The position numbers and the translations under genes are program-made. The notes under the pieces are model-generated. The model was given only the letters and a program-made list of their open reading frames with translations, had not been told where the DNA came from and did no database searches. 64,000 bases of DNA from a virus (Duplodnaviria; Caudoviricetes): positions 1 through 64,000 of IMG/VR virus record IMGVR_UViG_3300025735_000004. One strand, given 5' to 3'. This document shows, one piece after another, positions 21,355 through 64,000 of the stretch (position 1 is the first letter of the stretch; every line of letters starts with the position of its first letter).

Positions 21355-21645
21355 CTACGCCGCGTGTTGCGCGGTGACCACGGCGGTGAGTTGGCCAACC
21401 CGTTCCGCCAAGCGCGACAGGCGCTGCTCAAAGATGTGCTCAAACTCGCCTTTGCCTTCCTCGCGCAGGGCGGTCAGGGCGTCGGGCATGGTCATCGGCA
21501 CGATCAACGCTCGGGTGCTGTCGGGCAGGCTGGCCATGTGGGCCTCTGCTTCGTCGCGGTGGGTGTAAACCCCCGCCACCACAAGGGCTTCGCGTACTTC
21601 GTCCAGCCGGTAGAGCACCAGTGCTTCAGGTGTGATTTCGCTCAT
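21355..21645 (-). CDS. Hypothetical protein, first gene of the late region
   Basis: 96 aa ORF. Confidence 0.55.
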   Translation of the reverse strand: MSEITPEALVLYRLDEVREALVVAGVYTHRDEAEAHMASLPDSTRALIVPMTMPDALTALREEGKGEFEHIFEQRLSRLAERVGQLTAVVTAQHAA

Positions 21646-21974
21646 GGGGAGACCTATGCAAAAAATCAGCTCGGCCGTCTTCGGTTGGGTGAAACACTCG
21701 CGGCCTTGGGTTAAAGACTAGGCGAGGATCGCGAAAAAATTTTGCGTTGCTTCAAAATCGAGGCAACGGAGGCCTCAAAAGCGGGTGTTTTACCCCCTCT
21801 TCGAAAGTTTTTTTAACTATTTTTTCGGTTGTACTGGGAACCTTTTCTGACAAGGCTTTGACGCCAGAGATTGTCCGACAAAACAGGGCGTTTTGATGGC
21901 ACTTTTGTGAATGTCAAGGGGGGTAAAGACGGAGGCTTGGTTGTCTTTACCCCTCAATGCTCCGTATCCTATTG

Positions 21975-22004
21975 ACCATAAACGAAAAAGCCCCCGCTGT
22001 TAGG
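21975..22004 (-). terminator. Terminator-like hairpin
   Basis: AAAAAGCCC...GGGCTTT stem, U-rich tail on the minus strand. Confidence 0.5.
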
Positions 22005-22017
22005 CGAGGGCTTTACG

Positions 22018-22581
22018 GACTGGCGGGTGTTACAAGCACCTCCAGTCAAGGTCTCGGGGTATCTCTGCTTAGCTGGCCGGGGTACGAGACCGGGTCTAAA
22101 AAGTATACGCGAACATTGATCGCGTGTTCAACCATGCCCGCCTCATCCCCGTAACCCTTCCATTGCGCGTCTGGATCAAGATGGGGCGTTCGTTCGCCTA
22201 TTGGGCCGCAGTGCGTAAAACCACCCACAAGGGGATCTTCTCAGGGTGGTCGGTATAGCCGGGAGGTACGAACCTGGAAACAGGTCGGGAAGGCAATGGC
22301 AGGGCGGCGTATTACCCAGACACAGGCGCCGTCGACTGTCCCAAAACCTACCCCCGCCGTGCGCCGAGAAGGGCCGAGGGCGCTTGTAACGCATAACCTC
22401 GAAAGCGCGGAACGCCAGCTGGGAGTGGGAGCCGGGAAACCGGGATTTCCCCATTGCGTGGAGTTGTGTGGAAGGCCTTTTTTCAAGGGCTGGACGCAGG
22501 GGCTCGCACGCCAGTGGGAGCAAAAAGGGGGCCAGCTTTAGGCGGCCCTCACAAGCGTTTGTACCCCCCGCCTTGGGGTAC
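22018..22581 (+). ncRNA. Candidate large structured non-coding RNA
   Basis: No credible ORF; nested helices, two GAAA tetraloop hairpins, G-U pairs that favour the plus strand (details in findings). Confidence 0.4.
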
Positions 22582-22701: not shown

Positions 22702-22896
22702 ATGTTGATACTGACCCGCCGTATTCACGAAACCATCATGATTGGCGACGACATCCGCGTCACAGTGCTCGGTGTCAGCGGCCTGCAGGTGCGCGTCGGC
22801 ATTGATGCGCCCAAGGGCGTCGATGTCCATCGCGAGGAAATCTACAACCGCATTCAGGCTGAAAAAGCTGATCTCGCAAAACTGGACCTAGACTGA
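22702..22896 (+). CDS. csrA: CsrA/RsmA family translational regulator
   Basis: [52 protein letters not shown]; AAGGAG RBS. Confidence 0.96.
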
Positions 22897-27449: not shown

Positions 27450-27735
27450 TTCAAGGGGGTCAGTCTTGAATTTCTGGACTACTTGTTTAGAAACTCAAGA
27501 CTTTTTACTTGAATAAATGGCCATATCCAAGTGTTATGTATAGAATTTGTGCTTAAATTCAACGAAACCGTTTTGAAGTTCAAGTGATTGGTCTTGAAAT
27601 TGCCCCATGATTTCAACGTTTGCGCTGAGAAGTTCTAACAAAACGGTGCGAAAACACCCCCCAAATTCAAGAGTGGGGGCCAGAATACCCCAACGAATCC
27701 AAGAAATGACTGGAATTCAACGTGACTGAGAAGAA
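27450..27735. repeat. AT-rich putative origin with about 11 phased TTC-N14-GAA palindromic boxes
   Basis: Boxes start at 27450, 27472, 27494, 27526, 27558, 27579, 27612, 27633, 27666, 27698 (weak) and 27716; consensus TTCAAG-N8-CTTGAA; directly upstream of rep. Confidence 0.75.
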
Positions 27736-28348
27736 AAAGTCCTACTACACCTCCCGGGCCGACGTGGTGCCCACTCGACATAACCCATGGGCGGGTGAGT
27801 TGGCACACACGATCAAGAAAGGGAACAAGGTCACCGGCTTTGCCAGCTCCAAGCACGCCTTGGTGAACCAAGCTACCGGCGAGGTGATGACGGACGACAT
27901 CGCCCTGGTGGGGGTGCGCAAGGTAGTGGACAAGGAAGAGTTCATCAAGTTTTTCGGGGCAGGGATCATGGAGGTGTTCGAACTGACCACCCCGGCCAAA
28001 GACGTGTTCAAGGCGATCCTGAACGTGTACTTGGACCAGAAAAACCAGCCGGATCAGCTGTACCTGAACTACGACGAAATCAAAGAGATTTATGGCTACG
28101 GAAAGTCGCCCTCGACCTACTACAACGGTCTGAACGAACTGATCGTGAAAGGCTTCTTGGCCCCGGTGCAGTTCCGCGAAAGCCACTACTGGGTCAACCC
28201 GAACCTGTTCTACAAAGGCGACCGTATCCGTATCGTGCGCGAGTACGTGCGCGCCGGGACCAAGGCGGCCAAGCAGGTGGAGAAGGAGAACGCCGCGCTG
28301 AATCAGCTGGGGCTGCCGCTCGATGGCCCCATCATCGACACGGTATAG
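27722..28348 (+). CDS. RepL-type replication initiator (winged helix)
   Basis: LVNQATGEV N-terminus, STYYNGLNELIVKGFL helix, YWVNPNLFYKGDR signature of RepL-family proteins. Confidence 0.75.
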   Translation: MTEKKKSYYTSRADVVPTRHNPWAGELAHTIKKGNKVTGFASSKHALVNQATGEVMTDDIALVGVRKVVDKEEFIKFFGAGIMEVFELTTPAKDVFKAILNVYLDQKNQPDQLYLNYDEIKEIYGYGKSPSTYYNGLNELIVKGFLAPVQFRESHYWVNPNLFYKGDRIRIVREYVRAGTKAAKQVEKENAALNQLGLPLDGPIIDTV

Positions 28349-40751: not shown

Positions 40752-41141
40752 ATGAAAGCCGTCACCCAAGCCCCCAAGCCGGTCGAGATCATCGCCGGGC
40801 GTTTCGTCGTCATGTTCGAAGCGCAGGAAGAGGACACCGACCCGCGCAAACACTTCGTTGAGCAGTGCGGCTGGACGCCGAAGGACTACGCCAAGCAGCG
40901 CAACACCCAGTGGTTCGGCGTGCATATCACCCTGTGGGCCGGGGGCGAGCAGGTCGCTGAGCAGTTCCTGGGCGCCTGCGCCTACAAGAACCCCGATGAG
41001 TTCTGGCAGCGCTATCGCGGCGACTACTACGCCGACATGGTTAGCGAATGCCTGACCGCTGCCGGAGAACCCGTGCTCGCCACCATGTGGCGCGACACCG
41101 TGCGAGCTGAAACAGCCGCTAAACAAGGAGTAGCCCCATGA
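40752..41141 (+). CDS. Hypothetical protein
   Basis: 129 aa from ATG 40752. Confidence 0.7.
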   Translation: MKAVTQAPKPVEIIAGRFVVMFEAQEEDTDPRKHFVEQCGWTPKDYAKQRNTQWFGVHITLWAGGEQVAEQFLGACAYKNPDEFWQRYRGDYYADMVSECLTAAGEPVLATMWRDTVRAETAAKQGVAP

Positions 41142-42130
41142 CCATCACCATTGACCCGAAGCACCCCCTCGGCAGCGGCTCGCTGCTCTGGCTGCTGTCC
41201 GGGCGCATCCCCGGGGATGACGACGACACGCCGATGCTGTTCCTCGCCAACACCGAGGCAGGCGCCAAAGCCGCCTACGTGAAGTACATGCACGAACTGG
41301 CGGACCTCGATGCGGACGGCCTTAAGCAGCTGGAAGCCGACCATGGCAAAACCTGTTACATCAACGTCTGCGATCAGATCGGCGCTGAGCAGTCCGAGCC
41401 CCGGGAGTACGCCATCGCGATGCACGGGCTGCCCGGCCCCACCTGGCTGCAACAACCTGAAGACGACAACGACCTGGTGCTGCCGCTGACCTCTAACCCG
41501 GTGCTGGCCGCGACGTACACCGAAGCCGAGGCGCGCAGCCTGTGGGCGGACGTGTCCAAGCGGTTCCCCTCGGCGTCGTTTCGCCTTGATCGGCTGGTCA
41601 CCCCGGCGCGGATCGCGGATCTGGAGCAACGCCTGCGCGACCTCGCCGAGGGCGCCCGCAGCAAAGCCGACCTGATCGCCAGCGGCTCGCCGACCTCGGC
41701 CTACGCCAATCCGGTGCAGATCCTGCGGGCGATCGCCAAGGAAGCCGAGGACGGGTTGGGTCCCGACCCGGCCGCCGAGCTGGAGATTCAGCGCACACTG
41801 ATGCTCAGCACCGCCCACCTGCCGGACCTTTACCTTAAGTGGCTCAATGCGCAGGACCGGGTCAATGAAGGCGTCTTGTGGGAAGTCCCGCCGACTGCGA
41901 TTGCCGATGACGACGCGGAACCATCGAGCCTGATCGTCGACCCGGTCGGCGAATACGGCTGGCGGATCTGCATCACCGACTCGGTTGATGAATTCTCCGC
42001 AAGGGTGCCCGCTGACGACCCACTGCTGGCCTTGCTGCGCTTCGCCGAAACCCACCACTGCGACTGGCTGGGCATCGACCGGGACGGCCCGATCGTGCCC
42101 GGCCTGCCGACCTTTGAGGACGATGAATAA
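41138..42130 (+). CDS. Multi-domain hypothetical protein, C-terminus DUF5983-like
   Basis: LMLSTAHLP...EYGWRI...CDWLGIDRDGPIVPGLPTFE. Confidence 0.7.
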   Translation: MTITIDPKHPLGSGSLLWLLSGRIPGDDDDTPMLFLANTEAGAKAAYVKYMHELADLDADGLKQLEADHGKTCYINVCDQIGAEQSEPREYAIAMHGLPGPTWLQQPEDDNDLVLPLTSNPVLAATYTEAEARSLWADVSKRFPSASFRLDRLVTPARIADLEQRLRDLAEGARSKADLIASGSPTSAYANPVQILRAIAKEAEDGLGPDPAAELEIQRTLMLSTAHLPDLYLKWLNAQDRVNEGVLWEVPPTAIADDDAEPSSLIVDPVGEYGWRICITDSVDEFSARVPADDPLLALLRFAETHHCDWLGIDRDGPIVPGLPTFEDDE

Positions 42131-44069: not shown

Positions 44070-44158
44070 CCCCCGCACCACCCCGTAACCCCAAACCCCA
44101 ATAAGGCCAGCCAACTACCCCGGCAGGCCTACTCTTGCCTGTAGAAAGGAGAATCACC

Positions 44159-45001
44159 ATGCAACGCGCCCTTAGCCGTAACTTCGCTCACAACGCCAAC
44201 TCGCTGCGCAGCGAAATCGCCCTCACCGACGACCAGATTTTCCGGGTCGCCCCCTCGATCTTTGCGCAGGAACCACACGGCTCCCGCAGCGAACGCTATG
44301 CCTACATCCCGACCATCGACGTGCTCAACGGCCTGCGCAAGGAAGGCTTCGAACCCTTCGCCGTGGTGCAGTCCAAGTGCCGGCTGGAAGGTAAGAGTGA
44401 GTTCACCAAGCACATGATCCGCATGCGCCACGCCAACAACATCCTCGCCCCGCAGGCCAACGAGATCATCCTGCTCAACAGCCACGACGGCACGTCGTCC
44501 TATCAGATGCTGGCCGGGTGTTTCCGCTTCGTCTGCCAGAACGGCATGATTGCCGGCGACATCCTGGAAGACATCCGCATTGGCCACCGCGGTGACGTGA
44601 TGGGCAACGTGATCGAGGGTGCCTACACCGTGCTGCAGGGCTTCGACCTGGTGGATGAATCCCGCGAGGTGATGCAACAGACCCGCCTCAGTCAGGAGGA
44701 ACAGGCGGTGTTCGCCCGCTCGGCGCTGATGCTGCGCTACGACACCGAAGACGCTGGCAAGGCGCCAATCCAGGCCGACCAGCTGCTGCGGCCACACCGC
44801 CGGGAAGACACCGGCACCGACCTGTGGACCACCTTCAACGTCGTGCAAGAGAACGCCTTGAAAGGCGGGCTGCGGGGCCGCACGGCCAACAACCACCGCA
44901 CCACCACCCGTGCCGTCACTGGCATCACCCAGGACATGAAACTCAACCAGGCCCTGTGGGCACTGGCCGAGGGCATGCGCCAGCTGAAAGCCGCCGCCTG
45001 A
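44159..45001 (+). CDS. DUF932 family protein (plasmid leading-region type)
   Basis: PHGSRSERYAYIPTIDVL, FTKHMIRMR, NSHDGTSSYQMLAGCFRFVCQNG, LWTTFNVVQEN. Confidence 0.92.
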   Translation: MQRALSRNFAHNANSLRSEIALTDDQIFRVAPSIFAQEPHGSRSERYAYIPTIDVLNGLRKEGFEPFAVVQSKCRLEGKSEFTKHMIRMRHANNILAPQANEIILLNSHDGTSSYQMLAGCFRFVCQNGMIAGDILEDIRIGHRGDVMGNVIEGAYTVLQGFDLVDESREVMQQTRLSQEEQAVFARSALMLRYDTEDAGKAPIQADQLLRPHRREDTGTDLWTTFNVVQENALKGGLRGRTANNHRTTTRAVTGITQDMKLNQALWALAEGMRQLKAAA

Positions 45002-60460: not shown

Positions 60461-60481
60461 GCCTCACGGCTAGCTGTGGTT

Positions 60482-60507
60482 TGCCGGCGGGTTCGCGCCC
60501 GCCGGCA
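60482..60507 (+). terminator. GC hairpin, possible terminator or processing site
   Basis: TGCCGGCGGG-ttcgcg-CCCGCCGGCA followed by CTCTCTTGT. Confidence 0.5.
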
Positions 60508-60540
60508 CTCTCTCTTGTCGTCCGAGGAATGGGGTGCAAC

Positions 60541-63500
60541 GTGAAACTGAATGGACTTGCTCTGCTCGATGTGCGCGGCTTGCTGCTGCACGCCTACCAC
60601 CGGGGCACTGACCCCGATGCCAAACTCAGCCCCCTGACTGACAAGCCGGTGAACTCTGCCGGCTACGGTTTGCGTGGGTTCCTGGACACCTACATCATTC
60701 CCCTGCTGTCTGATTTCTCCCCCCTCAACATCATTGCGGTGTGGGATGGGGGCAACACCTTCCGCGAGAGCCTGTTCGCGAACTACAAGGCCAAGCGCCA
60801 CGCCGAGGAAAAAGACCCGGCGGTCGAAGCCCAGCTGAAAAAGATGTTCGACATGGCCAAGGCGCTGCTGGCCTATGCCGGCGCCTTCAACGTGCGCGTC
60901 GAAGGCGTGGAAGCGGACGACGTGATCGGCGCCTTCTGCCTGCACTTCCCTGAAGTGCTCAAGCTGGTTCACACCGTGGACCGCGACCTGACCCAACTCA
61001 ACGACGACAACACCACCGTGCTGGTGAAGGCTCTGCCGGCGGACGATTTCGAAGGCTACCCAACCCGCTACGTGCGGATCTACAAGTCCCTGGTGGGGGA
61101 CAAGACCGACGAATACGGCGGCGTGCCGCAGGTCGGGCCGGTGGCGTTCAAGTTCCTGGTCGACACCTACGGCTGGGACGGCATCGAGCAGCTGGAAGCC
61201 TGTGTGGCCAGCAACGACTACACCTTTCTGCTGGAAGCGTGCGAAGCCACCAGCTGCAAGGTGCTGCGCAAAATCTACGAGAGCCGCAGCACCTGGCGCC
61301 TGATGTACACCCTGGCGGGGCTGCACCCGGAACTGCTGTATGGCGCGCAGGGCCGCACGATCATCCGCCCGGAGTGGTACGTGCGCCTACCGGACGCGAC
61401 CAAGGTGCTGGACCTGCTGACCATCGCAGGTGACCCGAGCCTGTTCGAACACTTCGCCCCGCACATGCCGACCATGACCCTGGTGACGCCGGAGAACTGG
61501 CCGCAGGTGCATGCCGCCTACGTTGAAGGGCTGCGCGACACCCCGCTGGCCAGCTTCGACTATGAAACCTACGACAGCCTTGGCCACGACTGGTCGGCCG
61601 CCCTGCCGGACAGCTCCCGCGGCTACGTCGACGTGCTGTCGCAGCGCCTGACCGGGGGGTCTTTCACCTACGGCAGCAACCTGCAACACACCTTCTACCT
61701 CCCGGTGCTGCACAAGAACACGGCCAACCTGGACAAGGCGCGGCTGGTGGATCTGCTGCTCGACATCGAAGAGGCGCGGGTTGATTTCGTCGCACACAAC
61801 GCGAGGTTCGAAGCGTTGGTGACCAAGCTGACGCTGAACTTCCAGCTGGAGGGGCCGATCTGTACGCAGATGCTCGGCACCTACGTCGACGAAAACCTGG
61901 AGCAGGGCTTGAAGGCCCACGCCCGGCACTGGCTGAAGTACGACCAGGTCGAGTACAAGGAGCTGCTGGCCCAGCACGGCGCCCGGGACATGCGCGACCT
62001 CACTGGCGAGCAGGTGACCCACTACGCCTGTGATGACGCCTTCGTCGCGGCGCGGCTGGCGGTGCTGTTCTTCCTGATCCTCAAGCTGGAACAGCAGTGG
62101 GACTTCGCCTACAACGAGGACCGCTACACCCTGCACCCGTTCAACGACAGCTTTGAAACCGGCGTGCAGCTCGACTACGCCCGCCTGGACGAACTGGCCG
62201 CTGCCGATGCCGAGGTGGTCAAGAACAACACCGAACGGTTGCACAGCCTGCTGGCTGAGCATTGCAACCAGATCAGCGACATCGGCGCTGAGGGCTTGAA
62301 GAAGGCTGAGGGCGACAACCTGCTCCGGCTGTTCATCCACGACAAGCTGAACCGCTCGCAGGCACAGGCCAAGGTGGCCGAGGCCTATGAGCGCTGGCGG
62401 CTGGGTTCGGTGTACGTCCCCTACACCGAGACCTTTACCCCGGCCGAGTTCATCGCCACGGAGAAGGGATTCACCCGCGTGGCCGAGAAGGTCGGGCTGC
62501 CGATCGTGATGGAAAGCGTCAGCGGCAAGGGCGTCACCGCCTGGCTGATGACCAGCCAGCACCACCTGAAACAGCACGGCAGTACCGACCCGCGTGCCCG
62601 CATGCTGGTCGAGCTGGTGCAGGCCGCTGCCGGCGAGATTCGCAAGCGCGAGGGCGAGGCGTTCCTGACCTTGAAGCGGTTCATTGAAACCGAAGTGCTG
62701 CACCTGGACGGCGTGCGCGTGATCGAGGGCGACGAACTCAACCTCAACAGCCCCAAGCAAATGCAGATGCTGCTGTACTGCAAGTTGCAATTGCCGGTGC
62801 GCCTGCGCACCTTCCCGCAGAAGGGCAGCCGGCGGGATGAACTCGGCCTGGAAGGCAACCCCTCGACCAACGAGGACGCGATGTTGGCCGCGATGGCCGA
62901 GGACTGCCCCGAGGGCGATTGGCGCCGCGAGGTGTTGCAGCTGCTGATCGGCACCAAAGAGTGCATGACCCGCCAGTCCCTGTACTACGCCAAGTATCCG
63001 CACTGGCGGCACCCGAGCACTGGCGTGGTCCACCCTGGCACCCGCAACAATGGCACCAAGACCCGCCGCCCGGCCGGCTCCAGCCTAAACATCCTCGCCG
63101 TGAGCAAAGGCCCGCTGCGCTCGATCTTTCTGCCCCGGTACAAAGGGCATGTGATCGTCTCGCTGGACTTCTCCGGGCAGGAACTGCGCATCACGGGCAG
63201 CGAGGCAAAAGACCCGGTGCTGATTCAGGCCTACACCAGCCTGCCGAGCTACCTCGACGACGACGGCATGCTGCGCGCACGCTTCCAGGACATTCACTCG
63301 GTCACCGGCTGCACCTTCGCCGCCAAGGTGCTGGAGCAGCAGCTGGGCGGCGACATCCTCAAGCGCCTGAGTTTCAACAGCGCCGGCACCATGGACTACG
63401 AACAGTTTGTCAGCCTGTTGAAGGAAGGCGAGCACCTGTATGAGTTGGCCGGCGACCAGGCTCTGCCGCTGGGCAAGGCCATCATCAAGATCCGCAAGAT

Positions 63501-64000
63501 GGCCAAGACCGTGAACTTCCTGATCATCTACGGTGGCCAGGCGTTCTCGATGGGCATGAAACTGGGTATCCCGGAAAGGGCCGCCCAGCAGATCATCGAC
63601 GGCGTGTTCGCCGGCTACCCACGGCTCGGCCCGTGGCAGCAGGAAACCATCGCCGAAGCCCGGCGGCAAGGCTACATCACCACGGCGTTTGGCACCCGCA
63701 AGCACTGCGACCCCAACATTCTCAGCCGTGACGGCTCGCTGCGTTCGCGTGCCGAACGGCAGACGGTCAACCACAAGGTGCAGGGCTGCGCCGCCGACAT
63801 CCTGAAAAAGGCCCTGACCAAGGCCCACCACACCCGTCTGTACGAAGAAACCCGCGCCCACCTGATCGCTCCGGTCTACGACGAGCTGACCAACAGCGTG
63901 CCGATCGACAACGTGTTTGAGTTCGTCGAGCGCGCCCAGGACTGCATGAACATCACCCCGCCAGGGCATGCGATTCCGATGCTGGCCGAGGTGTCGATCG
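60541..64000 (+). CDS. polA: Family A DNA polymerase with fused 5'-3' and 3'-5' exonuclease domains, runs off the right edge
   Basis: GTG 60541. 5'-exo: NYKAKR, VEADDVIG, VDRDLTQL, GDKTDEYGGV. 3'-exo: FDYET, HNARFE, YACDDA. Polymerase: motif A DFSGQELR, motif B RKMAKTVNFLIIYG, motif C VYDEL. Confidence 0.93.
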   Translation, partial: MKLNGLALLDVRGLLLHAYHRGTDPDAKLSPLTDKPVNSAGYGLRGFLDTYIIPLLSDFSPLNIIAVWDGGNTFRESLFANYKAKRHAEEKDPAVEAQLKKMFDMAKALLAYAGAFNVRVEGVEADDVIGAFCLHFPEVLKLVHTVDRDLTQLNDDNTTVLVKALPADDFEGYPTRYVRIYKSLVGDKTDEYGGVPQVGPVAFKFLVDTYGWDGIEQLEACVASNDYTFLLEACEATSCKVLRKIYESRSTWRLMYTLAGLHPELLYGAQGRTIIRPEWYVRLPDATKVLDLLTIAGDPSLFEHFAPHMPTMTLVTPENWPQVHAAYVEGLRDTPLASFDYETYDSLGHDWSAALPDSSRGYVDVLSQRLTGGSFTYGSNLQHTFYLPVLHKNTANLDKARLVDLLLDIEEARVDFVAHNARFEALVTKLTLNFQLEGPICTQMLGTYVDENLEQGLKAHARHWLKYDQVEYKELLAQHGARDMRDLTGEQVTHYACDDAFVAARLAVLFFLILKLEQQWDFAYNEDRYTLHPFNDSFETGVQLDYARLDELAAADAEVVKNNTERLHSLLAEHCNQISDIGAEGLKKAEGDNLLRLFIHDKLNRSQAQAKVAEAYERWRLGSVYVPYTETFTPAEFIATEKGFTRVAEKVGLPIVMESVSGKGVTAWLMTSQHHLKQHGSTDPRARMLVELVQAAAGEIRKREGEAFLTLKRFIETEVLHLDGVRVIEGDELNLNSPKQMQMLLYCKLQLPVRLRTFPQKGSRRDELGLEGNPSTNEDAMLAAMAEDCPEGDWRREVLQLLIGTKECMTRQSLYYAKYPHWRHPSTGVVHPGTRNNGTKTRRPAGSSLNILAVSKGPLRSIFLPRYKGHVIVSLDFSGQELRITGSEAKDPVLIQAYTSLPSYLDDDGMLRARFQDIHSVTGCTFAAKVLEQQLGGDILKRLSFNSAGTMDYEQFVSLLKEGEHLYELAGDQALPLGKAIIKIRKMAKTVNFLIIYGGQAFSMGMKLGIPERAAQQIIDGVFAGYPRLGPWQQETIAEARRQGYITTAFGTRKHCDPNILSRDGSLRSRAERQTVNHKVQGCAADILKKALTKAHHTRLYEETRAHLIAPVYDELTNSVPIDNVFEFVERAQDCMNITPPGHAIPMLAEVSI

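Follow-up and report, generated by a model that had tools for sequence, protein, structure and literature searches.

A PAGEV-type RNA module in an 82-kb tailed phage is a candidate protein-free replication origin

An intergenic RNA module in an 82-kb tailed phage

We analysed a window of 64 kb, the first part of a complete, metagenome-derived virus record of 81,709 bp with terminal repeats. In this window, a gene-free folded stretch sits inside a 1,057-bp intergenic gap, bounded on the left by a leftward gene of the structural side and followed on the right by csrA. The features of the gap and its borders are as follows, by position in the window and by strand.

21355–21645, minus strand: last leftward structural-side gene, the left boundary of the gap
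21941–21970, plus strand: putative promoter of the long RNA, TTGTCT-18 nt-TATCCT, with a start near 21978; a weak candidate read from the sequence
21978–22521, plus strand: long, structured RNA resembling RNA II, about 545 nt, the presumed pre-primer (BLAST block, alignments, covariation)
21982–22095, minus strand: predicted RNA I-like antisense RNA, about 113 nt long and folding into three hairpins, whose sequence complements the long RNA at its 5′ end (fold z −3.76)
21987–22014, minus strand: predicted strong intrinsic terminator of the antisense RNA, an 11-bp stem and then a T-run (terminator scan)
22018–22047, plus strand: second hairpin of the 5′ domain, whose apex at 22029–22037 is the long-range partner (folds; stem compensated among homologues)
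22049–22091, plus strand: hairpin whose stem, GGTCTCG/CGAGACC, hardly changes around a variable interior (helix 3, 99% of cells paired)
22102–22131, minus strand: sigma-70-like antisense promoter, TTGAAC-18 nt-TATACT (promoter scan, conserved boxes)
22165–22417, plus strand: PAGEV RNA (RF03037), the central domain (80.3 bits against 61.1, full model)
22228–22238, plus strand: G-rich loop CAAGGGGATCT, unchanged in 33 of 36 homologues and also a loop in the Rfam consensus
22382–22390, plus strand: apical loop of the last PAGEV hairpin, complementary to 22029–22037 (duplex energies, covariation)
22448–22519, plus strand: long 3′ hairpin, 22448–22470 with 22495–22519, with a conserved AGGGGCT inside; past the end of the Rfam model
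22529–22581, strand not assigned: two phage-lineage hairpins 3′ of the module, at 22529–22548 and 22561–22581 (sequence and terminator scan; absent from plasmids)
22702–22896, plus strand: csrA, 64 aa (PHROG 9500, E 5.5e-30), a neighbouring gene outside the module

The virus encodes a phage structural and lysis set (terminase, portal, protease, major head protein and endolysin) and is only distant kin to cultured phages, its terminase being about 32% identical to those of the Pseudomonas phages Lana and PMBT3. Its ParA has its closest matches in Pantoea phage G19 and the E. coli phage-plasmid D6, the gene beside parA gives a weak match to a ribbon-helix-helix protein, and a small serine recombinase (resolvase) is also encoded. 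By the gene criterion for a phage-plasmid, we found complete morphogenesis genes together with ParA and the resolvase and, in the complete 81,709-bp record with terminal repeats, no match to the tyrosine integrase family PF00589. No plasmid record carrying this phage was found, and we know of no isolate in which the phage has been seen as a plasmid. Among the other genes, proteins with DUF932 and DUF5983 are encoded at 44135–45001 and 41138–42130, respectively. Both families are common on plasmids and integrative elements, and their presence would fit a plasmid-like lifestyle of the phage. The phage also encodes replication enzymes of its own, namely a family-A DNA polymerase, a helicase and a primase. 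The polymerase is a protein of 1,208 aa with an N-terminal 5′–3′ exonuclease domain; its gene occupies 60481–64000 of the window and extends to 64107 in the genome (L004:481–4107).

A covarying plus-strand fold and a predicted minus-strand antisense unit

The initial annotation had described the stretch as an ORF-free, highly paired region that might give rise to a large non-coding RNA. The absence of open reading frames is true in substance, although mechanical ORFs of 81–115 aa exist. Between homologues, the longest open frame differs in strand and frame, so we take the region to be non-coding; a protein-coding reading was rejected because open frames are not conserved among homologues.

We examined the fold in an alignment of 36 homologues at less than 97% identity (A1), for which RNAalifold gave 93 pairs, 41 of them with compensatory changes. 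The structure tested consisted of the window's 5′ hairpins and the consensus for the remainder. On A1, 85.9% of the cells of this combined structure were paired, and 57 pairs had changes on both sides, compared with 28.9 ± 2.8 in shuffles and 21–29 with slid partners. The strong covariation of the plus-strand fold supports the proposal of a large structured RNA, and many conserved G–U pairs indicate that the RNA is on the plus strand, as had been argued from the window alone. Pairing was highest in the PAGEV consensus, where helices 9, 17 and 19 were paired in 99–100% of cells with both-side changes at nearly every pair. More generally, the helices downstream of 22140 were paired in 87–100% of cells, mostly more than 96%, and helix 20 (22448–22470 with 22495–22519) was paired in 96.5% of cells, with 12 of its 19 pairs changed on both sides. 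In folding energy, the 564 nt originally described had only a modest advantage over shuffles on the plus strand (z −1.98, equalled by 3 of 100 shuffles) and none on the minus strand (z 0.03). The 5′ 146 nt, by comparison, folded strongly on both strands (z −4.37 on the plus strand and −3.76 on the minus strand; 0 of 200 shuffles as good).

Every helix that the initial annotation had listed could be read from the sequence where it had been placed, and seven of them covary or are kept among homologues, but the other three, CTGGCG/CGCCAG, CGCCTCATC/GATGGGGCG and GTACCCC/GGGGTAC, are not kept beyond the phage lineage. Covariation was clearest for ACCACCC/GGGTGGT (22220/22244), in which six of seven pairs are compensated, and also supports the ACCTG-GAAA-CAGGT hairpin, GTCTCG/CGAGAC, GACTGG/CCAGTC, ACGCGA/TCGCGT, GTTACAAGC/GCTTGTAAC and the hairpin at 22432, which occurs in all homologues with variable length. 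The long-range helix CTGGCG/CGCCAG was dropped on account of its lineage restriction, as was CGCCTCATC/GATGGGGCG, which lies partly within a lineage-specific insertion; GTACCCC/GGGGTAC is beyond the conserved module. At 22183–22198, the phage lineage has an insertion, GGGGCGTTCGTTCGCC, in the loop of the first PAGEV hairpin; it is itself a small hairpin and is lacking in all plasmid copies.

One of the covarying pairings is a long-range contact between two loops, in which GTTACAAGC (22029–22037), the apex of the second 5′ hairpin, joins GCTTGTAAC (22382–22390), the apical loop of the last PAGEV hairpin. The contact covaries across clades: locus L159 has GTTGACGC with GCGTCAAC, pPMA4326D has TTTGCAG with CTGCAAA, locus L165 has TTCGCAG with CTGCGAA, and the common plasmids vary between ACGGC/GCCGT and ACTGC/GCAGT. 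In an alignment-independent comparison, cognate loop duplexes had a mean energy of −11.0 kcal/mol, compared with −8.7 ± 0.4 for swapped partners, a difference that 0 of 10,000 shuffles reached, and in alignment A1 the covariation score of the contact was 0.406 compared with 0.205 ± 0.022, with the sequences compared in these statistics being related to each other. About one third of the unique loop combinations pair poorly, and one slid control, at a slide of −3, also gave good pairing (71.4% of cells). We found no such contact in the Vibrio copies of PAGEV; our attempt to extend it to them failed, as they have a short GNRA hairpin as the terminal hairpin at this position.

The 5′ loop at 22029–22037 is also the predicted target of the antisense RNA. 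These data suggest that the covarying contact is an intramolecular pairing with which the antisense RNA could compete, and competition between a contact in cis and an antisense RNA in trans would make a possible simple control switch. The suggestion in the initial annotation that competition at the hairpin at 22018–22047 is 'switch-like' is supported. The covarying contact also offers a simple mutational route to how the antisense RNA would switch off the primer.

The minus-strand antisense unit, like the plasmid-origin context of the module, was not part of the initial annotation. A promoter scan gave two sites, compared with 0.5 ± 0.7 expected, and the boxes of the predicted antisense promoter are conserved in place across the 36 homologues, as TAGACA, TGGACA or TTGAAC and as (C)AGAAT or TATACT. 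Folding of the antisense interval gave exactly three hairpins in all 36 homologues. Their stems are compensated between clades and their loops are variable, as expected of incompatibility determinants, and the stem of the terminator likewise has compensatory changes between the phage and plasmid clades. The Rfam RNAI model (RF00106, ColE1 RNA I) aligned to exactly the antisense interval, but its score of 27.5 bits (E 0.012) is far short of the cut-off of 47, and the model had no match in the plasmid homologues. A predicted antisense promoter and terminator around a three-hairpin RNA is the layout of RNA I and RNA II of ColE1. The putative promoter of the long RNA matches at 8 of 12 positions, which is under the threshold of the scanner; within the phage lineage it is conserved. 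Its putative −35 box is overlapped by a perfect 11-bp inverted repeat at 21920–21953 (GGGGTAAAGAC-12 nt-GTCTTTACCCC), which could be an operator or a terminator.

Distribution of the module and its probable function

Comparison with Rfam identified 22165–22417 on the plus strand as PAGEV (RF03037), with a score above the cut-off (80.3 bits; gathering score 61.1) and a match to model positions 1–185, the full length. The structured RNA core is therefore not new, as it is already a curated Rfam family. PAGEV has been described as plasmid-associated, with one copy inside a predicted replication origin (Weinberg et al. 2017, PMC5737381), and the plasmid paper cited there deals with a set of plasmids of P. 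syringae pv. maculicola. With the same Rfam model, pPMA4326D, a plasmid of this set, scored 104.7 bits for PAGEV.

The conserved module, at approximately 21980–22521, is larger than the Rfam model. Local BLAST against plasmids gave a shared block at 21980–22521/22534, in which the window shares about 70% identity with non-coding DNA of 4.5–10 kb Pseudomonas plasmids, and conservation halts sharply after GCCAGTGGGAGC (22510–22521) in plasmids and phage relatives alike. No Rep genes are annotated in the small Pseudomonas plasmids with the module, and the coding sequences of one such plasmid had no match to Rep families in Pfam. Pattern scans found the module in five viral contigs of the same lineage (87–99% identity), in 40 metagenomic contigs and, as one more distant copy, in another complete phage (G155); of the loci from a short-pattern scan of genome contigs, L052 was the sole true homologue. 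Fourteen of the metagenomic contigs have terminal overlaps and are thus circular. In the smallest circles, of 3.3–3.5 kb, the module is accompanied by a gene for either a MobA/MobL relaxase or a HigB toxin; no Rep domain of Pfam was found in them, with some of their proteins being unassigned. Because these circles have no recognisable replication protein, their replication would probably come from the module.

Of 151 genomes sampled from the genus of a Pseudomonas reference, 4 also contained PAGEV, in all cases with plasmid-type scores of 112–115 bits. The P. fragi plasmid pLKYC.ZH (L002; NZ_CP141900, 9.2 kb) has two full copies of the module (PAGEV scores of 113.6 and 112.7 bits), resembles a heterodimer of two 4.5-kb plasmids and contains a borderline traJ-II RNA match.

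The second phage, G155, is a different, unrelated-looking complete phage of 64.5 kb with terminal repeats. Its module (L193, G155:19391–23016) is flanked by a tail-fibre-like gene and the large terminase gene, and its ParA is distant, with only 31% identity to the ParA of the window. We found no csrA in G155, and no match there to the RepL-like protein described below or to PF00589. Within the lineage of the window, origin identities are 98.8%, 93.9% and 87% at the nucleotide level, compared with 94%, 86% and 68% at the amino acid level for the neighbouring csrA, and the compensatory changes of the module are retained. Conservation at least equal to that of csrA, together with these retained changes, argues that the module is in use.

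PAGEV membership, the covariation of the fold, the conservation of the antisense promoter, three hairpins and terminator, and homology to the sole module common to small plasmids in which no Rep protein is recognisable are established here. Our reading of the locus is that 21980–22521 is probably a PAGEV-type, Rep-independent RNA replication origin with a ColE1-/MRB-like layout. It would most likely be the replicon of a plasmid-like prophage, as it lies in a complete phage whose genes include those for ParA, a ribbon-helix-helix protein and a resolvase and none for a tyrosine integrase. The plus strand would be transcribed into a folded RNA of about 545 nt, similar to RNA II, which would stay hybridised to the DNA near the conserved 3′ end and prime leading-strand synthesis by host enzymes. 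An RNA I-like RNA of about 113 nt with three hairpins would be made from the minus strand, running from its own promoter to its own terminator, and pairing of this RNA with the 5′ hairpins of the long RNA would set copy number and incompatibility. In the Pseudomonas-type clade, the second 5′ hairpin would pair through its apex with the apical loop about 350 nt downstream, and the antisense RNA, by binding, would compete with this pairing and so provide a direct route to an inactive primer fold. The transcript ends, the priming of DNA synthesis, the control by antisense RNA and the use of the origin by the phage are parts of this scheme that we infer from the sequence. ColE1-type origins require DNA polymerase I and the phage encodes a family-A polymerase, which makes it possible that a PAGEV-type origin is served by a phage enzyme; the phage may thus supply its own polymerase to the origin at 21980–22521.

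A gene elsewhere in the window raises the question of a second replicon. The ORF at 27722–28348 (208 aa) is 31–35% identical by tblastn to RepL/RepA genes of 2.7–6.7 kb plasmids (best 35%, E 5e-18), a likeness that makes it a second candidate replicon of the phage. It had no match in Pfam or PHROGs, so membership of the Pfam RepL family was not confirmed. Its counterpart is present in the relatives G153 and G154, and no match was found in G152 (89% complete) or in G155. One may speculate that the RepL-like gene drives lytic replication, as in P1. Given this gene and the phage's own polymerase, helicase and primase, the PAGEV module is not required to account for replication. The module could then be a passenger, a plasmid origin gained by recombination that is idle in the phage or serves only for recombining with, or hitch-hiking on, resident plasmids, with the RepL-like gene 5 kb away as the true replicon. 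Such a history has precedent, as co-integrates with ColE1-type origins are common (PMC8683028), but we consider it unlikely: the phage lineage has kept the compensatory changes and conserves the module at least as well as the adjoining csrA, the antisense promoter and terminator are intact, and the module is present in G152 and G155, where the RepL-like protein was not matched.

It is also conceivable that the module encodes a free-standing structured sRNA with a role other than replication, for example as a trans-acting regulator of plasmid or phage genes or as the RNA component of a maintenance system. Rfam lists PAGEV solely as an sRNA candidate ('Gene; sRNA'), and covariation demonstrates a structured RNA, not priming. 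However, the 3.3–3.5 kb circles contain the module and no recognisable replication protein, and the module agrees with known RNA-based origins both in its antisense layout and in its size, which makes an sRNA of this kind quite improbable. The csrA leader or CsrA/RsmA-titrating RNA proposed in the initial annotation, in favour of which are csrA lying downstream of the module in three related phages (G152–G154) and two GGA-bearing tetraloop hairpins at 22272 and 22432, is implausible in the extreme and was rejected, as csrA adjacency is limited to this one phage lineage, all plasmids and phage G155 have the module without an adjacent csrA, the downstream genes vary between plasmids, neither GGA nor ANGGA is enriched (15 against 12.6 ± 3.0 and 1 against 2.8 ± 1.6, respectively) and Rfam gave no RsmY or RsmZ match in the window. 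What stands of the initial reading is a large covarying plus-strand RNA with a switch-like competition between hairpins; the roles linked to csrA do not, and the core of the RNA was already known as PAGEV.

Returning to the RNA-primed origin, we tentatively extend this reading to a broader hypothesis, to which we give somewhat less than even weight, that tailed phages of Pseudomonas-like hosts use a protein-free PAGEV origin as the replicon of a plasmid prophage, and that the kiss between the two loops is needed for an active primer and is blocked by the antisense RNA. If the origin reading is right, the orphan motif PAGEV would gain a concrete function as the core of an RNA-primed origin, and RNA-only replicons would occur not just in small plasmids but also in large tailed phages that have partition genes and no integrase. 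Because replicon typing by Rep proteins misses RNA-only replicons, some phage-plasmids, and their incompatibility with small plasmids, would then likely have been overlooked. The RNA family is known and the proposed mechanism is of a known kind; what goes beyond the searchable literature is how far the module extends, antisense unit included, the covariation of its long-range contact and its residence in two tailed-phage lineages.

Comparison with known RNA-based origins and phage-plasmids

The window's copy resembles PAGEV as described in that 22165–22417 fits the full model above the cut-off, its helices covary, and the family has a plasmid association and a predicted-origin context. It differs in that the unit here is about 545 nt long, extending beyond the model by about 190 nt upstream, where the antisense unit lies, and by about 100 nt downstream, where the long 3′ hairpin lies. 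This copy also has lineage-specific insertions and is in a tailed-phage genome rather than in a plasmid.

Several properties are shared with ColE1 and pMB1 (class B theta). No Rep protein was recognised in the minimal plasmids with the module, and the module, like ColE1, is found in small mobilizable plasmids with a relaxase. In the ColE1 record, RNA I lies at 645–749 on the strand opposite RNA II, and the A-run of the origin is about 555 nt from the start of RNA II; in the window, about 545 nt separate the likely start (about 21978) from the point where conservation ends. The predicted antisense RNA, at about 110 nt with three hairpins and its own promoter and terminator, also lies over the 5′ end of the long RNA. 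Finally, the G-rich loop CAAGGGGATCT precedes, by about 270–290 nt, a conserved G-run close to the module's 3′ end, as in ColE1, and this loop might serve R-loop formation as it does there. Set against these likenesses, the RNAI model stays at 27.5 bits against its cut-off of 47, the hosts here are apparently Pseudomonas, and family scans gave no Rop among the ORFs tested. A global alignment of the module to the ColE1 origin, in which the motifs at both ends are in the same order, scored z 2.8 against shuffles, which is not significant, so common descent with ColE1 is not demonstrable.

The MRB plasmids of Vibrio provide a second comparison. They have been shown experimentally to replicate from a 500-bp non-coding region that produces two partly complementary RNAs, the small one being a negative regulator (Le Roux, Davis and Waldor 2011, PMC3035462). 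The predicted module is similar in its non-coding minimal origin of about 500 bp, in its two partly complementary RNAs and in a small RNA that would regulate through loop contacts. MRB, which we compared by its description, has a two-hairpin RNA I of about 68 nt in a conserved 110-bp core, whereas the antisense RNA predicted here is about 113 nt long with three hairpins. MRB is described as confined to the Vibrionaceae, whereas the homologues reported here are in Pseudomonas plasmids and genomes and in metagenomic contigs, and the Vibrio copies of PAGEV do not have the long apical loop that is used here in the long-range contact.

MRB plasmids have been treated as a Vibrionales branch of the ColE1-like origins, and a ColE1-type origin has been placed beside an rpn-like nuclease gene in V. 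campbellii NZ_CP026317 (Ares-Arroyo et al., PMC8683028). We found two PAGEV matches in NZ_CP026317, a 195-kb Vibrio plasmid (L199 and L200), and the match at 138775–139025 directly adjoins the Rpn gene at 137736–138668. This match at the Rpn-adjacent origin indicates that PAGEV is very probably the central domain of the long RNA in the ColE1-like/MRB class of origins. In the same plasmid, one PAGEV copy lies amid IS elements and the other between the ParA and Rpn nuclease genes and an IS256 element. Ares-Arroyo et al. (PMC8683028) also ask whether divergent variants of ColE1 occur in Pseudomonadales. Our hypothesis, if true, bears on this question, as PAGEV would be the long-sought divergent ColE1-like class of replicons in Pseudomonadales, common to small plasmids and at least two phage lineages.

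Among phage-plasmids, the closest parallels are P1 and D6. The phage of the window resembles both in being a tailed phage whose genome has ParA-type partition genes and a resolvase and no integrase, and it resembles P1 in having a RepL-like gene alongside another replicon, here a candidate one. To our knowledge, the replicons of known phage-plasmids are protein-based. In contrast to those of P1 and D6, the candidate plasmid replicon of this phage would be based on RNA.
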